This document shows, one piece after another, positions 31 through 25,936 of a DNA stretch of 25,936 nt. The stretch's first letter is position 1. Each line of letters begins with the position of its first letter. The stretch comes from a virus (lineage: Duplodnaviria; Heunggongvirae; Uroviricota; Caudoviricetes): positions 1 to 25,936 of IMG/VR virus record IMGVR_UViG_2778261639_000014. One strand, 5' to 3'. The position numbers were made by a program, and so were the translations under genes. Under the pieces are notes generated by a model. The model searched no databases. It saw only the letters and a program-made list of their open reading frames with translations, and was not told where the DNA came from.

Positions 31-936
31 TCACTGCTTAGCCTCTCCACCAAGGGCATTTACCAGAGCATCAACCAGGCACGAAATTTCACTGGTCAAC
101 AGGAAGAAATCTACGTCCAGTCGCTGCGCAACATCTTCACTATCAATATCAGAGTTCTGCTCAAGCAATTCATCCGCAAATTTGACGCTGGTAAGGCTGA
201 AGTTATGGTCCAGTGTAAATTTAATGCGGTTCTGCCAGTCGAGTGCCAACTTAGTGACGAGCTTGCCAGCTTCCAGGTGTGTGGAAATTTCATCGCTTCC
301 CAAATCCTGCTTTTTCACTCGGGCAATACCGCCACCCTCAAGCACTGCCTTAAGTTCTGCCGCATCCCCCATTTGAAATCCCTGTGGAGCACTACCATCA
401 CGTACCCAGTTGGTCAGCGTTAATTCAATGGGATTTTCAACACTCAGGGGAACAACAGGAAGAGAACCCAGAGACTTACGCATAAGCGCGAGCATATCCT
501 CTGCCTGCCGCGCGCTGGCATTGATATAGATACGTTTAGTTGAACCGTCGTAGATCGCCTGGATAACAGAAAACTTTGAAAAAGCCCGTGGCAGAAGAGA
601 ATGCAGAACTTCGTCTTTCAGGGAGTCCTTCTCTGTTTTCTTCAGTTTACGCGCTTGTTCTTGCTCAAGTTTTTCAATTTTTTCTTGAATAGCTCGCTGG
701 ATAACCGGCGGGTGAAGAATTTTTGTTTCGCGCTTTGCTTCAACAAGGATAAAACCATTTCCATGCATAGCGATAACTTCGGAATTATCACCAAATGGCG
801 ATACAAAACCGAACTTGGCCATATCCTGACTACCGCATGGCGTGAAAAGGATCATTTTCTTTTTATCTTCTAAGTCGGTCAGATCCGCCTCACGAGAAAG
901 TTTATAAATAGTAATGTTTTTCCAGTGCTTAAACAT
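31..936 (-). CDS. rdgC: RdgC-family recombination-associated protein (P1 hrdC-like)
   Basis: Track ORF 31..957 (TTG). Full-length similarity to RdgC as recalled from E. coli (blocks [52 protein letters not shown]). First ATG is at 936 ([16 protein letters not shown]). P1 carries an RdgC homolog (hrdC). Confidence 0.85.
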
Positions 937-1381: not shown

Positions 1382-1666
1382 GTGGCAAGTATTGCAACAA
1401 AAGACAGCATTTGTTCGGGGCACGGAGGATTCCCATCCAGGCCTCCTGTAGAGAGTGAACCACTACTTAAAGTCAACGGAGTCGAAGTGTTAGTTGATGG
1501 TAAGCAATATGCACAGCATACCGATGGAAACAGTACGCACGGTGGGCAAGCTATATCAACCAGGGCATGGTTTACCGTCAATAGTAAAGGGATCGTATGC
1601 GTTGGTGACCCTGTTTCATGCGGATCTACCGTAGCGTCCGGAGACGGCCTGGTTCAGGTAAGTTAG
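1382..1666 (+). CDS. PAAR-like small protein (possible spike-tip protein)
   Basis: 94-aa ORF with GTG start. Repeated elements SGHGG, VNGVEV, THGG, VNSKGIVCVGDPVSCG resemble PAAR or gp5.4-type repeats. Stop is followed 8 nt later by the next gene with an AGGAG SD. Confidence 0.4.
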   Translation: MASIATKDSICSGHGGFPSRPPVESEPLLKVNGVEVLVDGKQYAQHTDGNSTHGGQAISTRAWFTVNSKGIVCVGDPVSCGSTVASGDGLVQVS

Positions 1667-12600: not shown

Positions 12601-12635
12601 AGGAGGAGGCCGGAGAACTCCGGCCTTTAACTTGA

Positions 12636-13217
12636 ATGGCACCTATACCTTATGGGGTTTACAGCCAGGCTGACGGTGTATCGCCATTTCTGAAAGTTAC
12701 TTTAACGAACTCTCAGTACCAGGTTACCGGATATATCAGCCAGGGGGCAGCAATGAACATGGCCCAGAATTGGGAAGCGCCGTTTACCGGTATGTCCATG
12801 GGGTCTGTTGCTGGTGCTTTCAGTGGTTTTGCGCAGGTTGGTACTGAAACAACGTCGGTGGCCCGTTGGAACAGCTTAATGGTTTGGGAAGGGGGGACAC
12901 CGCCGACGTTCACGCTGCCCGTAACTTTCATTGCTTTGAACAATCCATTCATTGAAGTTTCAGGCGCTATCGCCGCGTTGACAGCCATGATTAGCCCGGA
13001 ACTAAAAGCGGCCAATGTTGGTGGTCGAATCCCGGAACGTGTGACGCTAAACATTGGTCGCCGGATCAACATCACCGATGTCGCTATCCAGGACTTAAGT
13101 TTTGATCTCGATGCGCCAAGGGACAGTAATGGATATTTCCTGAAAAACACCGTCAACCTCCAGTTGACCGGTTCTTCGATATATAACAGCTCCGATATTG
13201 TTCGGGCGTTCCAGTAA
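12636..13217 (+). CDS. Hypothetical late-operon protein (tail component candidate)
   Basis: 193-aa ORF preceded by a GGCCGGAG/CTCCGGCC hairpin. Gly/Ala/Thr-rich. No diagnostic motif. Confidence 0.5.
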   Translation: MAPIPYGVYSQADGVSPFLKVTLTNSQYQVTGYISQGAAMNMAQNWEAPFTGMSMGSVAGAFSGFAQVGTETTSVARWNSLMVWEGGTPPTFTLPVTFIALNNPFIEVSGAIAALTAMISPELKAANVGGRIPERVTLNIGRRINITDVAIQDLSFDLDAPRDSNGYFLKNTVNLQLTGSSIYNSSDIVRAFQ

Positions 13218-13228
13218 AAGGATTTTAT

Positions 13229-13738
13229 ATGGGGCACAATAACACTAAGGGAAACCGTAAATTTATTAAGGGCCGCTATACTGCCAACGCGGCCAAAGGC
13301 GAACGACTGGTATCTTCTGAATTCCAGCTCACTTTTGCAGGCCATGAAGATATCAGCGTACTGGTTCGCACGTCGCAAATTCCTGAAATGACCCGCGAGG
13401 ATGTGGAGGACTATGGTCCGAATGGTGTGAAGTTCAACCAGCACGGTCCAATTCGAAACTCTGGGGAAATCCAGGTCCAGTGCGTGGAGACTATCGAAGG
13501 CGATATTCTTCAGTTCATTAAGGATCGCATTGCGGCGAAGGACTATGTTGATATCACGATGGCTGCGACCCCTGAATCCAAATCTTCCGGGGTTAACGCT
13601 GTGACTAAAGCTGCTACAACAATTGAAATGTTGGACTGCAAAATCTACAGTGATGCAATCGACTTTAGTACCGAAGATGTGACTGCCGCTGTGCGCCCGT
13701 CACTTCGTATCGTCTACAACTGGATTGATTGGGATTAA
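13229..13738 (+). CDS. Tail tube protein candidate
   Basis: 169 aa with AAAGGA SD. Last gene of the sheath-containing operon, followed by a strong terminator. Size fits a myovirus tube protein; assigned by size and position only. Confidence 0.45.
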   Translation: MGHNNTKGNRKFIKGRYTANAAKGERLVSSEFQLTFAGHEDISVLVRTSQIPEMTREDVEDYGPNGVKFNQHGPIRNSGEIQVQCVETIEGDILQFIKDRIAAKDYVDITMAATPESKSSGVNAVTKAATTIEMLDCKIYSDAIDFSTEDVTAAVRPSLRIVYNWIDWD

Positions 13739-13757
13739 GAGCCATCCCTTGTATTTT

Positions 13758-13782
13758 AAAGCTCCTTCGGGAGCTTTTTTTA
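13758..13782 (+). terminator. Rho-independent terminator of the late structural operon
   Basis: AAAGCTCC-TTCG-GGAGCTTT hairpin followed by T7, 20 nt after the stop codon. Confidence 0.85.
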
Positions 13783-13909
13783 TAACTATTTTATATAAAA
13801 ATGCATCGATAACATTGTCTGGAGTTTTATGTTAGATTATTAATGTTCTAATAAACTACAATTATTGCGGTAGATGTTTGTGCCTGTACTGTTAAAGGGG
13901 GACTCTAAA

Positions 13910-14506
13910 ATGGCTGTGATTCCAATGTCGTACTCCCCGGGTACTGTCGCTCGTCGATTTTCGATCCTGGACGGAGTTACCATCCAGGGTGTGCTTTACC
14001 AGGTTATATGGGATTCCAAAACCCCATTTGCAGCTGTAATAGAGGCTGCGCCTTCTGTTATCGATGGTGATATGCGGCATAAGGTTGTCGCTACTCTTGA
14101 ACTTCAACGTCGCCCGCAGCTTGAAGGCGTACTGGTAAGGAAGTTCTGGGAGGATAGCGATGTTGGCCAGATTGAAGGTATCGTGGTTGATGGAACTGTC
14201 CGGGATGTCGGTTTAGCTACTTTTGTTTACGAAACCGTAGCCTCAAAAGCTGGTGTTGTTTTGCTCAGTGATAATGAGCAATACGAAGGTGGAAAAGCTC
14301 TTTGGCAACATATCGCCCGTCGCTCTTCCGAGCTAAAAGTGTTTATCCTCGACACCGATGCTGCTCAGTATTACCCGTTTGACGGCGAACGTGTTTGCTA
14401 TGACGGGAAAAGTATTCCTGAATCCGAGATATGGAGTGAACATCCGGATCGAAGTAAGCATGGGGTTGTTCTTGTCGCAGAATCCATAACTGGAAAGGCG
14501 GCATAG
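13910..14506 (+). CDS. Hypothetical protein (orphan gene with its own promoter)
   Basis: Track ORF 13874..14506; ATG 13910 preceded by AAAGGGGGA. 198 aa. Preceded by a ~100-bp AT-rich promoter-like region. No recognisable domain. Confidence 0.55.
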   Translation: MAVIPMSYSPGTVARRFSILDGVTIQGVLYQVIWDSKTPFAAVIEAAPSVIDGDMRHKVVATLELQRRPQLEGVLVRKFWEDSDVGQIEGIVVDGTVRDVGLATFVYETVASKAGVVLLSDNEQYEGGKALWQHIARRSSELKVFILDTDAAQYYPFDGERVCYDGKSIPESEIWSEHPDRSKHGVVLVAESITGKAA

Positions 14507-14688
14507 CAGTAAAAAATTCCTTGCTCCTTAAAAGGGGAGAGGGTTAATCTACGTATGCTAAGCATAGGTATGGCCCCGGTTAATGTTAAGCGTTGTGCGG
14601 GACGCATAATGTTTACTGGGGCTTTCTTCTATCTGCTTTTCGGGGAATGCCTGAAGCAGATAGCCTCAAGCACACCGCAGCGGGTGTA

Positions 14689-14934
14689 TCAATGTCTGGC
14701 TTTTTTTCTATAGAAATCACCTGGAAGGGTGAATATCCACATCAGAAGAAATGTTGCAGCAAACATGATCCCTAATGGCCAGACCGCGCCAAAGAAAATC
14801 CATACTAAGATCTCCTCTGCTCGTTCTTTGCGGTCGATATCGACAAGCATTTTTCGGCTGATCATGTATACACAGAAGCCAATACAAACATATCCTGCAA
14901 AAGCGATCGCTAACTGTAAAAAATCAGATTGCAT
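14689..14934 (-). CDS. Small two-helix membrane protein
   Basis: Track ORF 14689..15015; ATG at 14934 preceded by GAGG. 81 aa with two hydrophobic helices (LQLAIAFAGYVCIGFCVYMI; ILVWIFFGAVWPLGIMFAATFLLMWIF) and a basic C terminus. Confidence 0.5.
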   Translation of the reverse strand: MQSDFLQLAIAFAGYVCIGFCVYMISRKMLVDIDRKERAEEILVWIFFGAVWPLGIMFAATFLLMWIFTLPGDFYRKKARH

Positions 14935-14964
14935 CTCCGACCTCAAACTGAAAACGCCAGGTGA

Positions 14965-14981
14965 CTCCAGATTAGAGCAAT
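14965..14981. promoter_or_regulatory. C1 operator-like site between repL and the small membrane-protein gene
   Basis: Core ATTAGAGCAAT (14971-14981) matches the conserved half of the C1 operator; the upstream half is degenerate. Lies 4 bp below the repL stop and ~35 bp upstream of the membrane-protein start. Confidence 0.45.
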
Positions 14982-14984
14982 CTA

Positions 14985-15830
14985 TCACCCTCTGAATCCT
15001 GCCGGTATACCCCATTGTTCGTTATCTTTATTTTTGGCTAAAACCGCATTAAGAGCTTCGTTTACCGTCATGCAATGCGGCAGATTATCGAAGTTTGATA
15101 CCCCGCCAATATCAGGAGAACGCTTGTTCTTCAGGTAAGCATATTTCCGCGCTGCCGCCTCTACTTTCTGCTTGAACTCATGTTTTTGAGCGCGTTTTTT
15201 GGATAACCGCAGATTGTCAGCCTTTGCTTTTGCCTCAGCGATCCATGAAGTCAATTTTTTGAGTCTGGTCGTTCCGGCACCGCCGGAAACTGATCTTTTT
15301 GTTTTTTTAACTTGTGACTTCTTATTCTTTATTGCCACGTCATCCTGACAGGGGGAGGGGGTATCATTTTGACATGGGGGTGTGGATAAAAAATTAAATA
15401 AAGCCAATGTCTTAGCGAGAACAGCTTTAACCTTGGTTGCCGCTGAAGAGATCTTTAATTTGCTTTCAATCAGCGCATTTTTGGCTTGTTGTGCGAAGGC
15501 CAAAAAGGATGGTGTAAACCGGTACAGGTTAGCGCGACGTTCATGGTGATCGCCGATAACAATCTCTACAGACAGAATTCCTTTGTTTACAGCTTCACGG
15601 AATGCACGAACGACGGTTGATTGGCTATAACCAGTTTCTGCCGCGATCAGGCGGTGAGGCTTGTGAATGAAGTATTCACTAGTTGTTGCCGCGAGATTTG
15701 CACATTGCGACAGGATATGCCCGGCGCTACGGGATAGACCGGAGTGTGTTACAAAGCAGGCCAATTCATAGCCAGAAAAAGTAAAATCGCTCATCGTTAT
15801 ACAGCTCAGGAAAGTGACTTTAGCCAGCAT
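14985..15830 (-). CDS. repL: Lytic replication protein RepL
   Basis: 281 aa from the track start; internal ATG at 15794 is an alternative. Matches P1 RepL as recalled (MSDFTFSGYELACFVTHSGLSRSAGHILSQ). Directly downstream of kilA as in the P1 kilA-repL operon. Confidence 0.8.
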   Translation of the reverse strand: MLAKVTFLSCITMSDFTFSGYELACFVTHSGLSRSAGHILSQCANLAATTSEYFIHKPHRLIAAETGYSQSTVVRAFREAVNKGILSVEIVIGDHHERRANLYRFTPSFLAFAQQAKNALIESKLKISSAATKVKAVLAKTLALFNFLSTPPCQNDTPSPCQDDVAIKNKKSQVKKTKRSVSGGAGTTRLKKLTSWIAEAKAKADNLRLSKKRAQKHEFKQKVEAAARKYAYLKNKRSPDIGGVSNFDNLPHCMTVNEALNAVLAKNKDNEQWGIPAGFRG

Positions 15831-15859
15831 TACAATGCTGGTGGTTCTTACTACGTCTG

Positions 15860-16660
15860 TTAGCGCGTTGCCGCGACAGGTACCAGCACACCAGCATCAA
15901 GCAATCGCTTCATCAGCCACTGCTGACCTTTGCCGGTTATACGAGTCGTGAAAGAAATCCTGCTTCCATTGCTTGTATCGATCACGGTTTCTTTAAGGGT
16001 GAAATACCCACGGGATATGTATTCTTGTTTGGGGACGTTCCTGCGTTCACCGGTTGCGATCAGAATTCCGTTATCACGCAACCAGGTGAAGAGATAGTTT
16101 TGGCCCAGGCCGAGCACTTTGGCATAGTTGCCGATTAGAACTCCGCTGGCGGTAGCAACGCGTTCGGCGAATTCGACTTTAGGTGCATCCATAAGCATTT
16201 TTTGCTCCAGCCGTTGCTTTTGCTCTGCCAGGTCGGCAGCCAAACGGAGAGCTTCAGGGAGACTCTGCGGAATAGCAGGTTGTAATCTTCCGGCTCGATA
16301 GTCGATAAATGTCTGGTTTACCTTCAGCCGAAACGCGGGAGAAATCCAGCCTGCGTACTCCACAGCGAGCAATTCATGGGCAAAAGTGCCGCCGCCACGG
16401 CCTTCGAAAGAAACTATGCAATTCTGCATAGTTTCTTTTTCAAGCTCTTCGATGAGCTGTTTGGCTGACAGCGTTCTTAGCCATTGAGCTGGCGCTTTAT
16501 GGGCACCGAGTCCGCTCGCTCTGTGTAGAGCATTAAGGTTGTAACGGCCAGCGCGGTCGGTCGTAATTTCAACACCACAAATAACAGGCAGAGTGGTTGA
16601 AGGATCGACATTTTGATGAAGGTTTGATATATTCATATCCGCATTGAATGTTTGTTGCAT
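15860..16660 (-). CDS. kilA: KilA (KilA-N DNA-binding domain plus antirepressor-type C-terminal domain)
   Basis: 266 aa with GGAGAAAAA SD. C-terminal half (IPQSLPEALRLAADLAEQK ... TGKGQQWL) is clearly paralogous to the C terminus of the upstream ant-like protein. Preceded by a C1 operator. Confidence 0.85.
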   Translation of the reverse strand: MQQTFNADMNISNLHQNVDPSTTLPVICGVEITTDRAGRYNLNALHRASGLGAHKAPAQWLRTLSAKQLIEELEKETMQNCIVSFEGRGGGTFAHELLAVEYAGWISPAFRLKVNQTFIDYRAGRLQPAIPQSLPEALRLAADLAEQKQRLEQKMLMDAPKVEFAERVATASGVLIGNYAKVLGLGQNYLFTWLRDNGILIATGERRNVPKQEYISRGYFTLKETVIDTSNGSRISFTTRITGKGQQWLMKRLLDAGVLVPVAATR

Positions 16661-16729
16661 TTTTTCTCCAAATTTGCATCAACCTTCAATCACCAGCTCG
16701 AAATGGTGATTCTTTGCACTTAGAAAACG

Positions 16730-16746
16730 AAATTTATTAGAGCAAA
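16730..16746. promoter_or_regulatory. C1 operator (P1 Op53-like) controlling kilA-repL
   Basis: AAATTTATTAGAGCAAA is the reverse complement of the C1 operator consensus with one mismatch, ~70 bp upstream of the kilA start. Confidence 0.75.
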
Positions 16747-16789
16747 TTTTTCTGGCCCGATCCAGATCGGGTTGGTCGATCTGCTCAGA

Positions 16790-16818
16790 AACCTGCCAGT
16801 TTGCTGGCAGGTTTTTTC
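16790..16818. terminator. Hairpin terminator between ant and kilA
   Basis: CCTGCCAG-TTTG-CTGGCAGG flanked by an A-run on one side and T6 on the other. Strong in the + direction, weaker (short U-tract) for the minus-strand ant transcript. Confidence 0.5.
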
Positions 16819-16823
16819 TTTTG

Positions 16824-17867
16824 TTAACCTATTGCTACTGGTTTTAACAAACCAGCATCAAGTAGCTTGCGAGTTAACCACTGCTGGCCTTTACCCGTTA
16901 ATTGGGGCGTCAGCCGTATCTGGTAGCCATTTTCATCATCCAGCACCACTTCTTTCACCGTGAAATATCCGGCGTTGATGTACTGCTGGCGCGGTACGTT
17001 TTTGCGCGCACCAAAAGCCATGAGAATGCCGTTCTGGCGCAACCATGAGAAAAGGGCGTTTTGCTTAAGTCCAACGACCTTTGCAAAGTTCCCGATCAGG
17101 ATTCCATTAGCCGCTGATACCCGGTCGGCAAAATCGACTTTAGGGGCTGCGGCCACCAGCTGTTGTTCCAACTGCATTTTCTGTTCTGCCAACTCGGCAG
17201 CCAGGCGTAGAGCTTCTGGTAATGTTTGGGGGATCGATGGGGTAGGTGAGTTTGCCTGCTGCAATTCTTCCAGTTTGTCGATCAGCGAACGGCGGACCGC
17301 TTTCGATTCGCGCGCGGCGACTCGCAGGGCTTGTTTGTAGGTCATGGTTATGACCTCAAAAGAGCGCCCGGCCCTTGTGCCATGGGATTTTACGAAAGTT
17401 TCGTAAAATTCCCCATCAAGTTCATCCTTAATTCTATTGAGAAAATCGTTATTGCGGATCTCATTTTCCCTACATAGCTTGCGCGCATCATTAACCATCT
17501 TTAACAGCGTCTGGCTGTCGATTGTGTCTCCAGTGTTGGAGATAACATTCACAGCTGGTGATGGCGTAGCTGAAGCAACAGATGCTGGTTTTTTAACATT
17601 CAAATTATTACTGGTCATTCTATGTGCCTCCTTTCTCATTTCTGCTGCCACCGTTGCGTAACGTAGACGTCCTTGTTCAATCAAATAATCCCTGATCTCG
17701 GCTATCAGTAGCCTGTTGATCACAGCCTTATCTGTTCGGGTATAAAAACGCCTGGTTATCATGAAATAGTTGGCAATTGCGCCGGGGATCTCCCGTGTCG
17801 GCATACAGGCAGTATGCAGGGCGATCGCTTCGGCTATTTCATTACGGGTGACGAGAGGTTTTTTCAT
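16824..17867 (-). CDS. ant: Antirepressor (P1 Ant-like)
   Basis: 347 aa. Central Rha/AntA-like region and C-terminal antirepressor domain shared with KilA. Preceded by an overlapping 73-aa ORF and a C1 operator, as in the P1 immI operon. Confidence 0.8.
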   Translation of the reverse strand: MKKPLVTRNEIAEAIALHTACMPTREIPGAIANYFMITRRFYTRTDKAVINRLLIAEIRDYLIEQGRLRYATVAAEMRKEAHRMTSNNLNVKKPASVASATPSPAVNVISNTGDTIDSQTLLKMVNDARKLCRENEIRNNDFLNRIKDELDGEFYETFVKSHGTRAGRSFEVITMTYKQALRVAARESKAVRRSLIDKLEELQQANSPTPSIPQTLPEALRLAAELAEQKMQLEQQLVAAAPKVDFADRVSAANGILIGNFAKVVGLKQNALFSWLRQNGILMAFGARKNVPRQQYINAGYFTVKEVVLDDENGYQIRLTPQLTGKGQQWLTRKLLDAGLLKPVAIG

Positions 17868-18085
17868 AAAACCCCCTGAACGTCAGCAGAGAAGGGGAGG
17901 TTCCAGTAACTAAGTGAATTGCGCGAGTTAGTAGAAAAACGGGCAGTAAAAATGCAGGGGCCATCAGGCAATTGAGAGCGTGCTTCGTCTTCAGTTGCTG
18001 CGATAACGAAGTGATAGTGGTGTTTTTGGCAGGAGTAAAAGCGCCAGATAAATTCAGGATGAGTAGGGGTAGGGATAGTAGCCAC
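17864..18085 (-). CDS. icd: Icd-like small protein overlapping the ant start
   Basis: 73-aa ORF with GTG start and AGGAGG SD 9 nt upstream; its stop overlaps the ant start. Same size and arrangement as P1 icd as recalled. An alternative 81-aa frame (17842..18087) is also open. Confidence 0.5.
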   Translation of the reverse strand: MATIPTPTHPEFIWRFYSCQKHHYHFVIAATEDEARSQLPDGPCIFTARFSTNSRNSLSYWNLPFSADVQGVL

Positions 18086-18270
18086 AATGGCAGCCTCCTT
18101 TTGCTAATTTAAGGAGCTACCGCGTGAGGTTCCAATCTCAATGGCGGTAGCACTGACTGGGTTGGAACTACCGGCGCAAAAGGGAACCGGCCTGCCTTTC
18201 GGCAGCCCAGCCAGCACTACCATTGATCTCGGAGCTATGTGCTACGTATGGCTGTGCGATGGCATGACAC

Positions 18271-18410
18271 AAAAAAAGACGCTTTTGGCGTCTGTGTCGC
18301 CTTTTGCATTATCCGGGGTCTCAATCCCGGCACCCGTTTTAATGAGGTGCCTGATAAGCATAAACCGAAAATGCCTCAAGGCGCAAGAGGTCAGGCTCAA
18401 TGTAACATCG
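18271..18410 (-). ncRNA. c4-like antisense regulatory RNA region (immI leader)
   Basis: Between the operator/promoter at ~18415-18441 and icd: a T-arm-like stem-loop CCGGG-ATTGAGA-CCCGG (~18311-18336) and a GACGC-TTTTG-GCGTC hairpin followed by U7 on the minus strand (~18271-18292). Fits the position of P1 c4. Boundaries not determined. Confidence 0.3.
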
Positions 18411-18424
18411 GTAGTTAAAAAACA

Positions 18425-18441
18425 CAATTCATTAGAGCAAA
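18425..18441. promoter_or_regulatory. C1 operator-like site (P1 Op51-like) upstream of the immI-like module
   Basis: Core ATTAGAGCAA at 18431-18440 within a 17-mer with ~3 mismatches to the consensus. Lies 4 bp from the pacB stop codon. Confidence 0.6.
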
Positions 18442-18444
18442 TAT

Positions 18445-19929
18445 TCATTCATTAAGCCATGCCAGAGCTTCATCAACCTGCGCTTCGTCTTCGACGCTAA
18501 GCACTTCATCCTGGGGAACATAATCCGCCAGCATAGCGAAACAATATGTATCCCAATGGTCTGGTGAGTGCAGGTTGAGTTTTTTCTTCATATCCTCCTT
18601 ACTCATCACCTTCCATTGACCTGCGGAGTTAATCCCTACAGGGATTTTCGACGCTTCCTCAATAGTTTCATTACCCTTATCCAGTCTCATACGACCAGAT
18701 TTTACGGCCTCTGCGGCTTGAACATTGGCATAAGCACGTTTATCAAAGTACAGGCTCTTATCTTCACGGCTATGCATCTTTTTACCCCAGCGTATACGCT
18801 GTACGGTAATACCATAATACTCGTACATCAGATCCGCCGTTGCTTTACCCAGGCCATCGCCGTCTATCGCTATGGTGATATTGGGGAATCGCTCAGGATT
18901 ACATTCTGCGAAAATTTTGGCGGCAAGCTGCGTTTCTGTAACGTCTGTGTATTCCAGCATTCGATAGTTGATTACACGGCGTTTATTTCGCTGGCCGGAC
19001 ACCATCATGATATTGATAACGGACTTATCCCGTCCCGTACCACCAGCAACGTCCACACATGCAAGCCAGCCCCATCCTTTGGCAATCTTGACTTTCCGCC
19101 GCGTTGCACGTTCAACCTCATCACGTCCAAGAAGGAAGCCATCCTGTGATTTAGGGAATAGGCCGCGTACCTTAATCATGTACATAGGGTTATCACGCCC
19201 GCCGTACTCCGCCAGCTTCATTTTGATAAATGCTGGCGTTACCAACGGTGATTCCTCACTGTTAAGCGTGATCGCCGTATAAACGCCATCAGGGTTACCA
19301 GGACGCTTGGCCAGTTTATGGTGTGTATCGTAGAAATAGCCGCTTGGGCGTGTAGGCTGTGACAGCAATAAGATGCGGTTATCCTGTCCGGTAAGAGCAC
19401 CGGTGATGATACCGAAAGCTCTATCACTGACACCGGAGGCTTCATCGATAATATACAGAAGATGATCTGCGTGTTCACCGGCGAGAGCTTCTTCACTTCC
19501 CAGACGAAAGCCCTTCGGTACTACAGTCCATACACCTTTACCAGTAACCTCATAGAAAGCGGTTTCTGTCAGAACAAAATAATCAGCAAGCCATGGAAAA
19601 CGGCTGGTGGCAGTAGCCCAGTTTATCTTGATGTACTTGAATATACCGGTCATTACCTGCTGAATTTTGTTCGCAACGATAATGGCTCGGGCACCGGGAT
19701 ACATGATTATGAACAACATGATCATGATAGAAGTCATGTCTGATTTCCCGGTACCGTGACCAGACGAAACAGATGTCTTGCTACCCTGTTCCTGCACAGA
19801 CTCAATAATCAGATCCTGCTGCCAGGTAGGTGTTTTGCCGAACAAAACATCAGCGGCAGCAATCCAGTCATAACGATATAGCGCCACCAGCTCGCGCCAA
19901 CGTGGATCCGTTACGCAACTTCTGGCCAT
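18445..19929 (-). CDS. pacB: Terminase large subunit PacB
   Basis: 494 aa. Walker A GHGTGKS, Walker B-like [12 protein letters not shown]-terminal nuclease-like acidic region. Start overlaps the pacA stop. Confidence 0.9.
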
Positions 19930-23677: not shown

Positions 23678-24067
23678 TTAAATAACCGGACAATCATCAA
23701 ATTCCCCACTTCGGGCATCATTGATGACATGAGTGATCACACCAAAAACAGCATTACTGCCCGTGTATCCATCGTCATCTACTGGTAACGCCTCTTTCTT
23801 CCCGGTGCTTAAGTCCTCCAGGTGCTGGCGCGGATACTTCCTGTATCTCTTTATGCGATATTCACCCTCCATAGCGCACACAAGCAGAGAACCATCAACC
23901 GGAGTAAGCGAGGAATCAACCACCAGCAAAGCACCCTGCAATATTCCCTCACGGTGATGGCTATCAGCTGCCCGCATGAAGTAGGTCGCTGAAGGATGTC
24001 TAATTATCTGCTGATCAAGAGAAATTCGGCTTTCAACATAATCCGCCGCAGGAGAAGGGAAGCCCAT
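23678..24067 (-). CDS. humD: HumD (UmuD'-like S24 peptidase-fold protein)
   Basis: 129 aa. Resembles UmuD lacking the N-terminal arm (GFPSPAADY...). Preceded by a LexA box. Confidence 0.85.
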   Translation of the reverse strand: MGFPSPAADYVESRISLDQQIIRHPSATYFMRAADSHHREGILQGALLVVDSSLTPVDGSLLVCAMEGEYRIKRYRKYPRQHLEDLSTGKKEALPVDDDGYTGSNAVFGVITHVINDARSGEFDDCPVI

Positions 24068-24085
24068 AGCGTTTTACCTCAATGA

Positions 24086-24105
24086 TACTGTTTATTCATA
24101 CAGTA
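24086..24105. promoter_or_regulatory. LexA (SOS) box upstream of humD
   Basis: TACTGTTTATTCATACAGTA is a perfect CTGT-N8-ACAG SOS box, 19-38 nt upstream of the humD start codon. Confidence 0.8.
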
Positions 24106-24190
24106 TACATTGAAAAGGCATAGTTTGTGAAAGCGGGGTTTGTAGGCGCGCCACGCTGGGGGCTAATCACATTTCTCCCCCATCTTGCCG

Positions 24191-24442
24191 TTATTTTTTT
24201 GGTGCATCCTCGTTCTGATACACCGGATCGCTCCCTTTTGGCAACTGGAGGCTTAACTGCCGGTAGTGCCGTAGCCGTTCCATGAAATAGGCGCGCAGGT
24301 TTTCCGGTTGCTCACGGGCCACCTGCTCTGCAATCACAGGTATATTCAGCCGTTCTTTGTAAGCAACGCCGCTGGCGGCAAGGTCTACGTTCACCTTGTC
24401 TCGCTCTTCCTGGCTTTTAGCTGCTATATTTCGATCTGACAC
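24191..24442 (-). CDS. hot: Hot (homolog of Pol III theta subunit HolE)
   Basis: 83 aa, GTG start with GGAGG SD. Similar to E. coli HolE as recalled ([33 protein letters not shown]). Confidence 0.85.
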
Positions 24443-24474
24443 AAGAAACCTCCAGGAGTTAGTGGATCAGGCAC

Positions 24475-24825
24475 ATGCACAATAACGTTCTCAATGTTAG
24501 CCGTTCAATTCAGACAATCAGAGACTGCACCAGTGTGGTGGCATCAATCCCATTGCGGAACAGCATAGACGAACTGCAAATTCGTGTATTGAATCCGAAT
24601 CAGGCTAATAAGCAATTGCGCTTTATTTTGACGCTGAAAAGTGAAACAGAGGGGATAAAGCACAGCGTAAAAGTGTTTTCTGAGGCCATTCTGCTTAATG
24701 GGAAGCTCCGGCATCTGGTAAGGCCAGAACGTCAATATCCTGACGTCCTGGCGCGTGAAAAAGACCTTCTTTCTGAAGTTCAGGATAGGGTGATCGATTT
24801 CGTCAAATGCTATCCCCTGCATTGA
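24475..24825 (+). CDS. Hypothetical protein divergent from hot (position of P1 uhr)
   Basis: 116-aa ORF 32 bp from the hot start on the opposite strand. No recognisable domain. Confidence 0.45.
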   Translation: MHNNVLNVSRSIQTIRDCTSVVASIPLRNSIDELQIRVLNPNQANKQLRFILTLKSETEGIKHSVKVFSEAILLNGKLRHLVRPERQYPDVLAREKDLLSEVQDRVIDFVKCYPLH

Positions 24826-25094
24826 GGGCAGGTGTTCCCTTCCGCAAAGTAGGGAAAATTGCTATCAAGTTCATCACACCATCTGCGATGGTCGTAGCAC
24901 CAAAACGCCTCCCACGGTGCACGGAAATACTTCATCCACCAGGACACTCGATCAGGTATATCTTCTGGTGGCAGTTCTTCTGGCAATAATTTGCCTGATA
25001 ATTCCCTTTCCGCCCGCGACAGCATTTTTTTGAGGCTCGCGTTCTCTTTTTCAAGCTCATCTACGCGCACCTGTAATTCAGCTTTCGTTGGCAT
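24810..25094 (-). CDS. Hypothetical coiled-coil protein with C-terminal Cys/His cluster
   Basis: Track ORF 24810..25175; ATG 25094 preceded by GAGGTGG, giving ~94 aa. Coiled-coil-like N terminus and C-terminal W.YDHRRWC...CPQC. Start lies 13 nt after the stop of the upstream gene. Confidence 0.4.
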   Translation of the reverse strand: MPTKAELQVRVDELEKENASLKKMLSRAERELSGKLLPEELPPEDIPDRVSWWMKYFRAPWEAFWCYDHRRWCDELDSNFPYFAEGNTCPQCRG

Positions 25095-25761
25095 GGTCCA
25101 CCTCATGCTTTTCAGCCACCAGCGGCAATAAAGCCCTGGCCATCTTATGAACCAATAGTGCATCAATAATGCCAAGCGTATGCCCCGGCTTAATGTTTAA
25201 TGCCGCCTCAAGGTGACACCTTTCCAAGCCACTTTTCTCGGCTTGTTTATGATGATCTGGTGTAATAACGTCGCCCAAAACACGGCTAATTCTTTCTCGT
25301 AATTGCTGGGTGCCAGCACACTTGATCGCTGTATCGTGGAGACGGTTAACCAGTTCGCGATAAACATGCGGCTTAATGCGGATACGTTCACCGGTGACGC
25401 CCTTTCCTGGCGCTGGCACCGAACTATCCGGATAGTTGCCAGCCTCGTAAGCTACCCGCAGCCAGTGCATGAATGTTTCAGTGGACACACAACCACAGTC
25501 CACATCGATTTTTCCGCGTTGCTGTTCCAGCCATTGCCCAAAATCCAACCTGTAAGTCTTACTTTCAAGTTCATCACCATTGAACTCGACTTTCTGCGAC
25601 GCTATGAGAGCTGATTCGTATTGTTCGCGAGTGACAACTGACTGGTATTCATCGCTATCAAGGTCACCAATTGGAAGCTCAATCTCACAACAAAAATTGC
25701 GCCCAAAGAAAGTGTCTTTTTTGTGGTCTGAGCCAAAAGCAAAAGTCGCGCATGGTGCCAT
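25078..25761 (-). CDS. Hypothetical protein
   Basis: 227-aa ORF convergent with the uhr-like gene. Contains several Cys/His pairs (CGC, HHKQAEKSGLERCH). No domain recognised. Its upstream region runs to the window edge. Confidence 0.5.
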   Translation of the reverse strand: MAPCATFAFGSDHKKDTFFGRNFCCEIELPIGDLDSDEYQSVVTREQYESALIASQKVEFNGDELESKTYRLDFGQWLEQQRGKIDVDCGCVSTETFMHWLRVAYEAGNYPDSSVPAPGKGVTGERIRIKPHVYRELVNRLHDTAIKCAGTQQLRERISRVLGDVITPDHHKQAEKSGLERCHLEAALNIKPGHTLGIIDALLVHKMARALLPLVAEKHEVDHANES

Positions 25762-25936
25762 TAAATTGACACTGGGTACTGAGAGATCCCCTCATAATTT
25801 CCCCAAAGCGTAACCATGTGTGAATAAATTTTGAGCTAGTAGGGTTGCAGCCACGAGTAAGTCTTCCCTTGTTATTGTGTAGCCAGAATGCCGCAAAACT
25901 TCCATGCCTAAGCGAACTGTTGAGAGTACGTTTCGA

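Follow-up and report, generated by a model that had tools for sequence, protein, structure and literature searches.

Introduction

In phage P1 the genes pmgT, pmgU and pmgV (P1_gp095-097) are located between pap, with the operator Op88, and hot. Eight hypervariable regions have been described in P1-like phage-plasmids, and the segment pmgT-pmgU-pmgV-upfMNO-hot-lxr-humD is region 8 among them (PMC9603915). All three pmg genes were scored as non-essential in a genome-wide CRISPR interference (CRISPRi) screen of P1, and earlier work cited in a table of the same study found them non-essential for P1 plaque formation (PMC10695390). The Ead/Ea22 proteins of lambdoid phages (PF13935) are likewise early, dispensable and mosaic, coiled-coil proteins with swapped modules, and Ea22 of lambda is pro-lysogenic (PMC7093339, PMC10834534). 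In this study we analysed the right end of a 25,936-nucleotide stretch of viral DNA (Caudoviricetes; IMG/VR record IMGVR_UViG_2778261639_000014, positions 1 to 25,936; hereafter the window). Here two minus-strand open reading frames (ORFs) of 227 and about 94 amino acids (aa) had been proposed, from the sequence alone, as an accessory module next to the P1 gene uhr.

The locus has the same position between pap/Op88 and hot as the pmg genes of P1, and the C-terminal ~100 aa encoded by its larger gene are 95% identical to PmgU. It differs from P1 in that the window copy is cut by the insertion sequence IS10, in that its N-terminal and middle modules are unlike those of PmgT, and in that a gene for a 94-aa protein with a Cys-His-Cys-Cys (CHCC) motif replaces pmgV. 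We concluded, with a probability of roughly 85%, that the region is the distal end of a P1-like early accessory operon (pmgT-pmgU-pmgV, between pap and hot) cut by IS10. Our confidence is high for this anatomy and moderate to low for the biological role. The finding amounts to an ordinary copy of catalogued but uncharacterised genes, disrupted by an IS element, in a hypervariable region that had been described before. The three features concerned are:

25078-25778, minus strand: 3' remnant (codons 77-312) of a 312-aa mosaic PmgT/PmgU-family gene, from tblastn and DNA alignment
24810-25094, minus strand: 94-aa gene, intact, in place of P1 pmgV; phrog_3797 (7e-59, full-length)
25779-25936, minus strand: inside end of IS10, including the transposase 3' end, 100% identical to IS10 of R100/Tn10 and running past the window edge

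The 227-aa ORF and the IS10 element

The 227-aa ORF was present in the ORF list at 25078-25761 on the minus strand, and the 94-aa ORF was likewise found where it had been predicted. The larger of the two had been taken as a complete protein. When the intact homologue WP_077767319.1 (P0032, 312 aa) was used as a tblastn query, its residues 77-312 aligned to 25779-25081 with 97.9% identity over 236 aa. The ORF itself was 98% identical to P0032 and 96% identical to J46_0087 of SJ46 (310 aa), and the alignments to the intact 310-312-aa proteins began at their residue 77-83, the ORF thus representing their C-terminal three quarters. J46_0087, p0099 of RCS47 and WP_077767319.1 are intact alleles, and residues 77-312 of the window copy are 96-98% identical to the SJ46 and plasmid proteins. 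In a tblastn search with P1 PmgU, 95% identity over 101 aa was found at 25419-25117, in the C-terminal half of the 227-aa ORF. The intact homologue matched phrog_21459 with 1.5e-84 (family phrog_21459/phrog_60).

The DNA alignment to two uninterrupted alleles was perfect up to position 25778 and unrelated from 25779 onwards. The last 158 bases of the window, which had gone unseen in the original prediction, were identical (158/158) to IS10 in Tn10 of plasmid R100, and the window edge was 99.3% identical to an annotated 'IS10 transposase' of phage CL707. The C-terminus of the transposase (...THGYALGKL) was read on the minus strand at 25792-25905, with its stop codon TGA at 25794-25792. The window edge thereby shares with IS10 (IS4 family; ISVsa5 in RefSeq naming) the terminal CTGAGAGATCCCC as well as the transposase C-terminus. 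These alignments indicate that the 227-aa ORF is not a complete gene and that IS10 cut a larger gene after codon 76. The ATG assigned to the ORF is an internal Met codon, and no Shine-Dalgarno sequence was read in front of it (TACCCAGTGTCAATTTA-ATG). In the AlphaFold2 (AF2) model of the intact 312-aa protein only an alpha/beta domain at residues ~50-140 was confidently predicted, with a predicted local distance difference test (pLDDT) score of 70-90. According to this model, the insertion after residue 76 would split the sole confidently folded domain. The 227-aa stump is most likely a pseudogene.

In R100/Tn10 the matching end of IS10 abuts tetD, and the end seen in the window should therefore be the inside end. 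In the window this inside end abuts phage DNA instead of tetD, for which reason a solitary IS10 or a non-canonical arrangement appears more likely than a canonical Tn10 insertion. A simple IS10 insertion would duplicate the 9-bp target CACTGGGTA.

The 94-aa gene

The 94-aa gene lies within an enclosing ORF at 24810-25175 on the minus strand, from which the ATG at 25094 gives a protein of 94 aa. The protein consists of a coiled-coil helix, a Pro-rich linker and a C-x2-H-x19-C-x2-C motif. The residues C66, H69, C89 and C92 were invariant in 11 intact homologues, with the CxxH...CxxC spacing of four putative metal ligands. In the AF2 model (mean pLDDT 81) an N-terminal helix of ~30 residues was followed by the Pro-rich linker, short helices and a poorly defined Cys/His end. 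The C-terminal part was modelled with low confidence (pLDDT 56-68), and Foldseek against the PDB gave nothing at E<1. The coiled coil with a C-terminal Cys/His cluster, as originally described, was thus recovered.

Among homologues of 58-65% identity we counted 50-58 substitutions at codon position 3 and 23-36 at positions 1 and 2. Since substitutions at position 3 clearly exceed those at the other two positions, the pattern argues that the 94-aa gene is really coding. The family comprises 31 homologue clusters, mostly from contigs of ~90-100 kb. One residue separates the window copy from the common allele (RefSeq WP_001142394.1 in relatives), and the window protein shows no substantive difference from the phrog_3797/WP_001142394.1 proteins of P1-like plasmids, RCS47 and D6. 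In several relatives the homologue is frameshifted in its C-terminal third. Homology to PmgV was rejected, as no similarity was found. The label 'antitoxin PHD', which some database entries carry, was rejected as well (BLASTP against the Phd of the window, E=0.25; no Pfam PhdYeFM match).

Map position on P1

The region was identified by megablast and annotations as the pmgT-pmgU-pmgV/hot segment, which adjoins humD-phd-doc. Immediately to the left of the 94-aa gene and of a neighbouring 116-aa ORF, the window carries hot, humD, phd and doc. The order pacA-lpa-pdcB-pdcA-doc-phd-humD-hot is common to RCS47, P1, SJ46 and several plasmids, and in all of these the pmgT/pmgU/pmgV region is located on the opposite side of hot. 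We concluded that hot, found 368 bp downstream of the 3' end of the 94-aa gene, is the landmark that fixes the true map position on P1. The flanking features and those of the left end of the window are:

24475-24825, plus strand: 116-aa ORF, the 'uhr-like gene' of the original prediction; phrog_2594 (1.1e-46), WP_000551789.1 in relatives
24191-24442, minus strand: hot, DNA polymerase III theta subunit homologue; Pfam DNA_pol3_theta (2.8e-33), 89% identical to P1 Hot
23678-24067: humD, adjoining hot
34-936, minus strand: hrdC, by homology to P1
932-1213, minus strand: uhr, 100% identical to P1 Uhr
1382-1663, plus strand: upfC, by homology to P1
1618-2460, plus strand: upfB, by homology to P1

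The original prediction had placed the two right-edge ORFs after uhr, where upfC and upfB were expected. This placement was rejected, because the true uhr-upfC-upfB genes are found at 932-2460, at the opposite end of the window. There hrdC, uhr, upfC and upfB are 88-100% identical to P1. As candidates for Uhr, UpfC and UpfB, the 116-aa, 94-aa and 227-aa ORFs were likewise rejected, with BLASTP E-values of 3.4, 0.19 and 4.5, respectively. A C1 operator-like site with one mismatch at 1285-1301 is the positional equivalent of P1 Op68/Odmt.

When the P1 proteins were searched by tblastn, pmgV, upfM/N/O and lxr had no counterpart in the window. In P1 lxr lies between hot and humD, and it was absent from the corresponding spacer in the window. 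This spacer is 124 bp long (24067-24191) and contains a palindrome, TACTGTTTATTCATACAGTA, near 24085 that reads like a LexA box, as well as a promoter-like site at 24131-24102.

Operon context and pairing of the two genes

The 227-aa ORF shares 17 nt (25078-25094) with the 94-aa ORF. Because of this overlap, together with the GAGGTGG located just upstream of the 94-aa ATG, the originally proposed translational coupling of the 94-aa gene to the overlapping ORF is plausible. In the distant phage-plasmids L008 and L010 a long run of genes on one strand ends with the 94-aa homologue, upstream of an Lpa homologue. No PmgU-like gene adjoins it in L008, and downstream of it in L010 a weak similarity over 65 aa was all that was found. 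Conversely, it is the unrelated pmgV that follows the PmgU domain in P1 and SJ46. Judged from these gene orders, the 94-aa and PmgU-like genes are not a conserved pair. One plasmid (NZ_CP083587.1) encodes a 381-aa in-frame fusion of the 312-aa and 94-aa proteins (P0034, ...LPLVAEK|ENASLKK...), which is apparently a deletion accident, namely a short deletion between the overlapping genes. As a Rosetta-stone link it was given little weight, being a single deletion derivative.

In pFORC64.1 a C1 operator, ATTGCTCTAATAAATAT, with one mismatch to the consensus, heads ~7 kb of small genes on the same strand. The operator lies directly downstream of a 507-bp gene in the position and size of P1 pap. 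The string contains more than 10 genes, including two Ead/Ea22-like genes, DUF4014 and DUF4752, and ends with a PmgT/U-like gene followed by the 94-aa gene. In the P1 annotation Op88 is found upstream of pmgT, and we concluded that the operator of pFORC64.1 corresponds to P1 Op88/OpmgT. Membership of the window genes in the C1-controlled pap-hot operon was read from hot, which is seen in the window, and for the upstream part, beyond the window, from pFORC64.1 and P1.

In intact relatives a C1 operator would thus head a mosaic string of ~7 kb, with a PmgT/PmgU-family protein of 290-312 aa and the 94-aa CHCC protein encoded by the last two cistrons. As in P1, C1 would keep the operon silent in the lysogen, and early transcription would follow once this repression is lifted. 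In the window, the insertion after codon 76 leaves a 5'-truncated stump that lacks the N-terminal module and half of its folded domain, and at least 1.3 kb of IS10 would lie between the operon promoter and both genes. The 94-aa gene would then most likely be silent, or only weakly read through from the transposase transcript of IS10, whose direction is the same. A promoter and terminator scan of 24000-25936 detected only the humD site and no promoter-like site between IS10 and the two genes. From this arrangement we infer a loss of expression of both genes in the window. The earlier suspicion that the unit is incomplete holds insofar as both genes are cut off from their promoter; the cause is IS10 inside the larger gene and not the edge of the window.

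The segment at 24475-25094, which carries the 116-aa and 94-aa ORFs, matched near-identical, intact copies in 143 PLSDB plasmids; in 94 of these the match covered 80% or more of the segment. Nearly all of these plasmids (141/143) were typed as non-mobilizable, and the examples listed were 90-102 kb in size and from E. coli and Salmonella. The segment was also found in the phages RCS47 and D6.

The PmgT/PmgU family

The family of the interrupted gene comprised 626 clusters at 90% identity and 581 representatives at 50% identity. Its members join shared C-terminal modules to varied N-terminal heads, among them HAD_PNKP phosphatase, Ead/Ea22-like, DUF551 and P1-PmgT-type heads. The most widely shared piece is located at residues ~140-205 (F-x-Q-W-L-x-Q-Q-x-G-x-I-D-V-D-C-G-C-V...H-W-L-R-V-A-Y-E-A-G-N) and is followed by PmgU-like helical modules. 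A Pfam match to Ead_Ea22 (PF13935) was confined to relatives with the same C-terminal modules (P0151, P0160); neither the stump nor the intact P0032-type protein had such a match. Ea22-like genes are present in the same operon in relatives. The window protein and its intact homologue had no sequence match to solved structures, including the C-terminal domain of Ea22.

Head and C-terminal modules were also met apart from each other. In pFORC64.1 (12604-19523) the PmgT-type head (MKGEVKERG...) has a gene of its own, the first one behind the Op88-like operator, and the PmgU-like domain is encoded by the penultimate gene, ~7 kb downstream. Proteins such as P0059 (392 aa) combine a PmgT-type head and a PmgU-like domain within a single frame. 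In P1 (3969-5038) the final 77 aa of PmgT result from reading the PmgU domain out of frame, and in sequence the pmgT/pmgU pair looks like a deletion and frameshift scar.

Pfam gave no significant match for any of the three ORFs, as had been stated for the 227-aa and 94-aa ORFs in the original prediction, and scans of the stump, the intact homologue and the 94-aa and 116-aa proteins returned only PHROG families of unknown function. Sub-threshold coiled-coil matches in the domain scans, such as bZIP, were dismissed as noise. PADLOC-DB gave no match at E<=0.1 for the 312-aa homologue or for the 94-aa and 116-aa proteins. In Foldseek searches against BFVD the model of the intact protein matched uncharacterised phage proteins alone, for example those of Arya and SETP13. 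A polyubiquitin match (E ~0.002) in the PDB sequence search with P0032 and the 94-aa family profile was rejected as compositional; no stretch passed on its own.

Competing explanations and biological role

Several observations weigh against reading the region as the IS10-cut end of an operon. The profile and structure searches recommended in the original prediction gave no Pfam, NCBIfam or PADLOC match to the modules of the window allele, no Pfam, NCBIfam or PDB sequence match for the 94-aa protein and, with Foldseek, no PDB match for the intact 312-aa model, leaving PHROGs of unknown function. The same IS10 junction was not found among phages, PLSDB plasmids or complete E. coli genomes. The window stops within IS10, so that the far junction, the 9-bp target duplication and the upstream half of the gene lie beyond its edge, and a rearrangement other than a simple IS10 insertion may have taken place. 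The 94-aa gene could be driven by read-through from IS10 or by an internal or late promoter that went unrecognised. In addition, the transposase stop codon is in frame with the 227-aa ORF, 10 codons upstream of its ATG (25762-25794). This is probably a coincidence, and termination-reinitiation at the 227-aa ORF is conceivable.

The in-frame stop codon also bears on whether the stump could still be functional, its C-terminal modules (~145-312) being active and translated from the internal Met by way of IS10 read-through. All widely shared C-terminal modules are retained, natural family members of 202-221 aa consist of a short N-terminal piece and these modules with little more, and the transposase gene is transcribed towards the stump. 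Set against this are the missing Shine-Dalgarno sequence in front of the ATG and the missing promoter-like site, and a protein starting in the middle of the alpha/beta domain would, according to the AF2 model, carry ~60 misfolded residues. Expression of the IS10 transposase is very low, under the control of pIN and of an antisense RNA, which also speaks against this reading. We consider a functional stump unlikely. Even less likely, and in our view hardly tenable, is that the two ORFs form a self-contained two-gene module for anti-phage defence, anti-defence or a toxin-antitoxin function. The overlap with its possible coupling, the location in a variable, non-essential region where phage-plasmids carry cargo, the 'antitoxin PHD' label and the in-frame fusion P0034 in one relative would all fit such a module. 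The larger ORF is a stump truncated by IS10, however, PADLOC gave no match and the 94-aa protein is unlike Phd. Moreover, the pairing is not kept in L008 and L010, pmgV follows the PmgU domain in P1 and SJ46, and both genes stand at the end of an operon that counts more than 10 genes.

A function in virion morphogenesis is suggested by the names of pmgT, pmgU and pmgV ('putative morphogenetic function'), by the annotations of P1 and RCS47 and by UniRef entries named 'Morphogenetic protein'. We give it equally little credence. The three genes are dispensable for P1 plaques (PMC10695390), the region is replaced wholesale among P1-like elements (PMC9603915), and control of the P1 operon by the C1 operator Op88 points to early rather than late expression. 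The scar-like appearance of the P1 pmgT/pmgU pair and the modules held in common with Ea22-like early proteins argue in the same direction. We concluded that the locus has neither a defence module nor a virion morphogenesis function. By analogy with Ea22, the genes of this IS10-cut operon end most likely have a dispensable early function of the Ea22 class, modulating the host or the lysis-lysogeny decision. More tentatively, and with considerable doubt, architecture and position would also allow the 94-aa protein and the PmgT/PmgU-family mosaic proteins to be C1-controlled early effectors for anti-defence, host takeover or lysis-lysogeny tuning, with the common C-terminal module docking the varied heads onto a single host or phage target. 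If this were true, P1-like phage-plasmids would possess, in the hypervariable pmgT-hot region, an exchangeable arsenal for counter-defence.

The accessory nature of the genes, as originally proposed, agrees with their location in region 8 (PMC9603915) and with the non-essential pmgT, pmgU and pmgV (PMC10695390). That they form an accessory module of their own was not borne out; they close a long operon as its two final cistrons, and distant relatives have the 94-aa gene but no PmgU-like gene beside it. The original prediction had named clear P1 orthologues of known function at the same position, or pseudogenisation in relatives, as findings that would speak against such a module. A clear P1 orthologue was found in the uncharacterised PmgU, which matches the C-terminal half of the 227-aa ORF. 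Pseudogenisation was seen, by IS10 in the window and as frameshifted 94-aa homologues in several relatives. The analysis corrects the map position, and the 227-aa ORF, being a stump generated by IS10, is not suited to cloning and assay as a module. Both the 94-aa CHCC protein and the modular PmgT/PmgU family represent genuine early genes that are conserved and wholly uncharacterised, and for whose function the intact alleles in RCS47, D6 and pFORC64.1 are the right material. P1-like phage-plasmids are of medical relevance as carriers of extended-spectrum beta-lactamase (ESBL) genes.

The 116-aa ORF

The 116-aa ORF is convergent with the 94-aa gene, with an overlap of 16 nt. The convergence was described correctly in the original prediction; the likeness to uhr was not upheld, as the ORF was rejected as Uhr (BLASTP against P1 Uhr, E=3.4). 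Its homologues form 21 clusters, all at least 88% identical, many of them truncated to 69 aa and all from contigs of P1-like plasmid size, and the ORF is restricted to P1-like plasmids. The ATG of the ORF lies only 32 bp from the start codon of hot on the opposite strand. It may be a real gene, or the region may serve as the promoter of hot.

A recombination joint elsewhere in the window

A recombination joint was observed near 18050-18100 (window 17600-18450). On its left side, repL-kilA-ant1-icd matches the canonical immI region of P1/RCS47 with 97.7% identity. From ~18100 rightwards, the window matches, with 99-100% identity, a second ant-icd-ash module of the E. fergusonii plasmid p18B233LT1, where this module lies between c1 and pacB; further to the left of the joint p18B233LT1 is only 64-68% identical. 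The joint brings immI up against the 3' end of pacB, so that the intervening c1, cre and tail and lysis genes, which occupy ~45 kb in P1, are absent. The source would be a deletion derivative or else a chimera assembled across the repeat.

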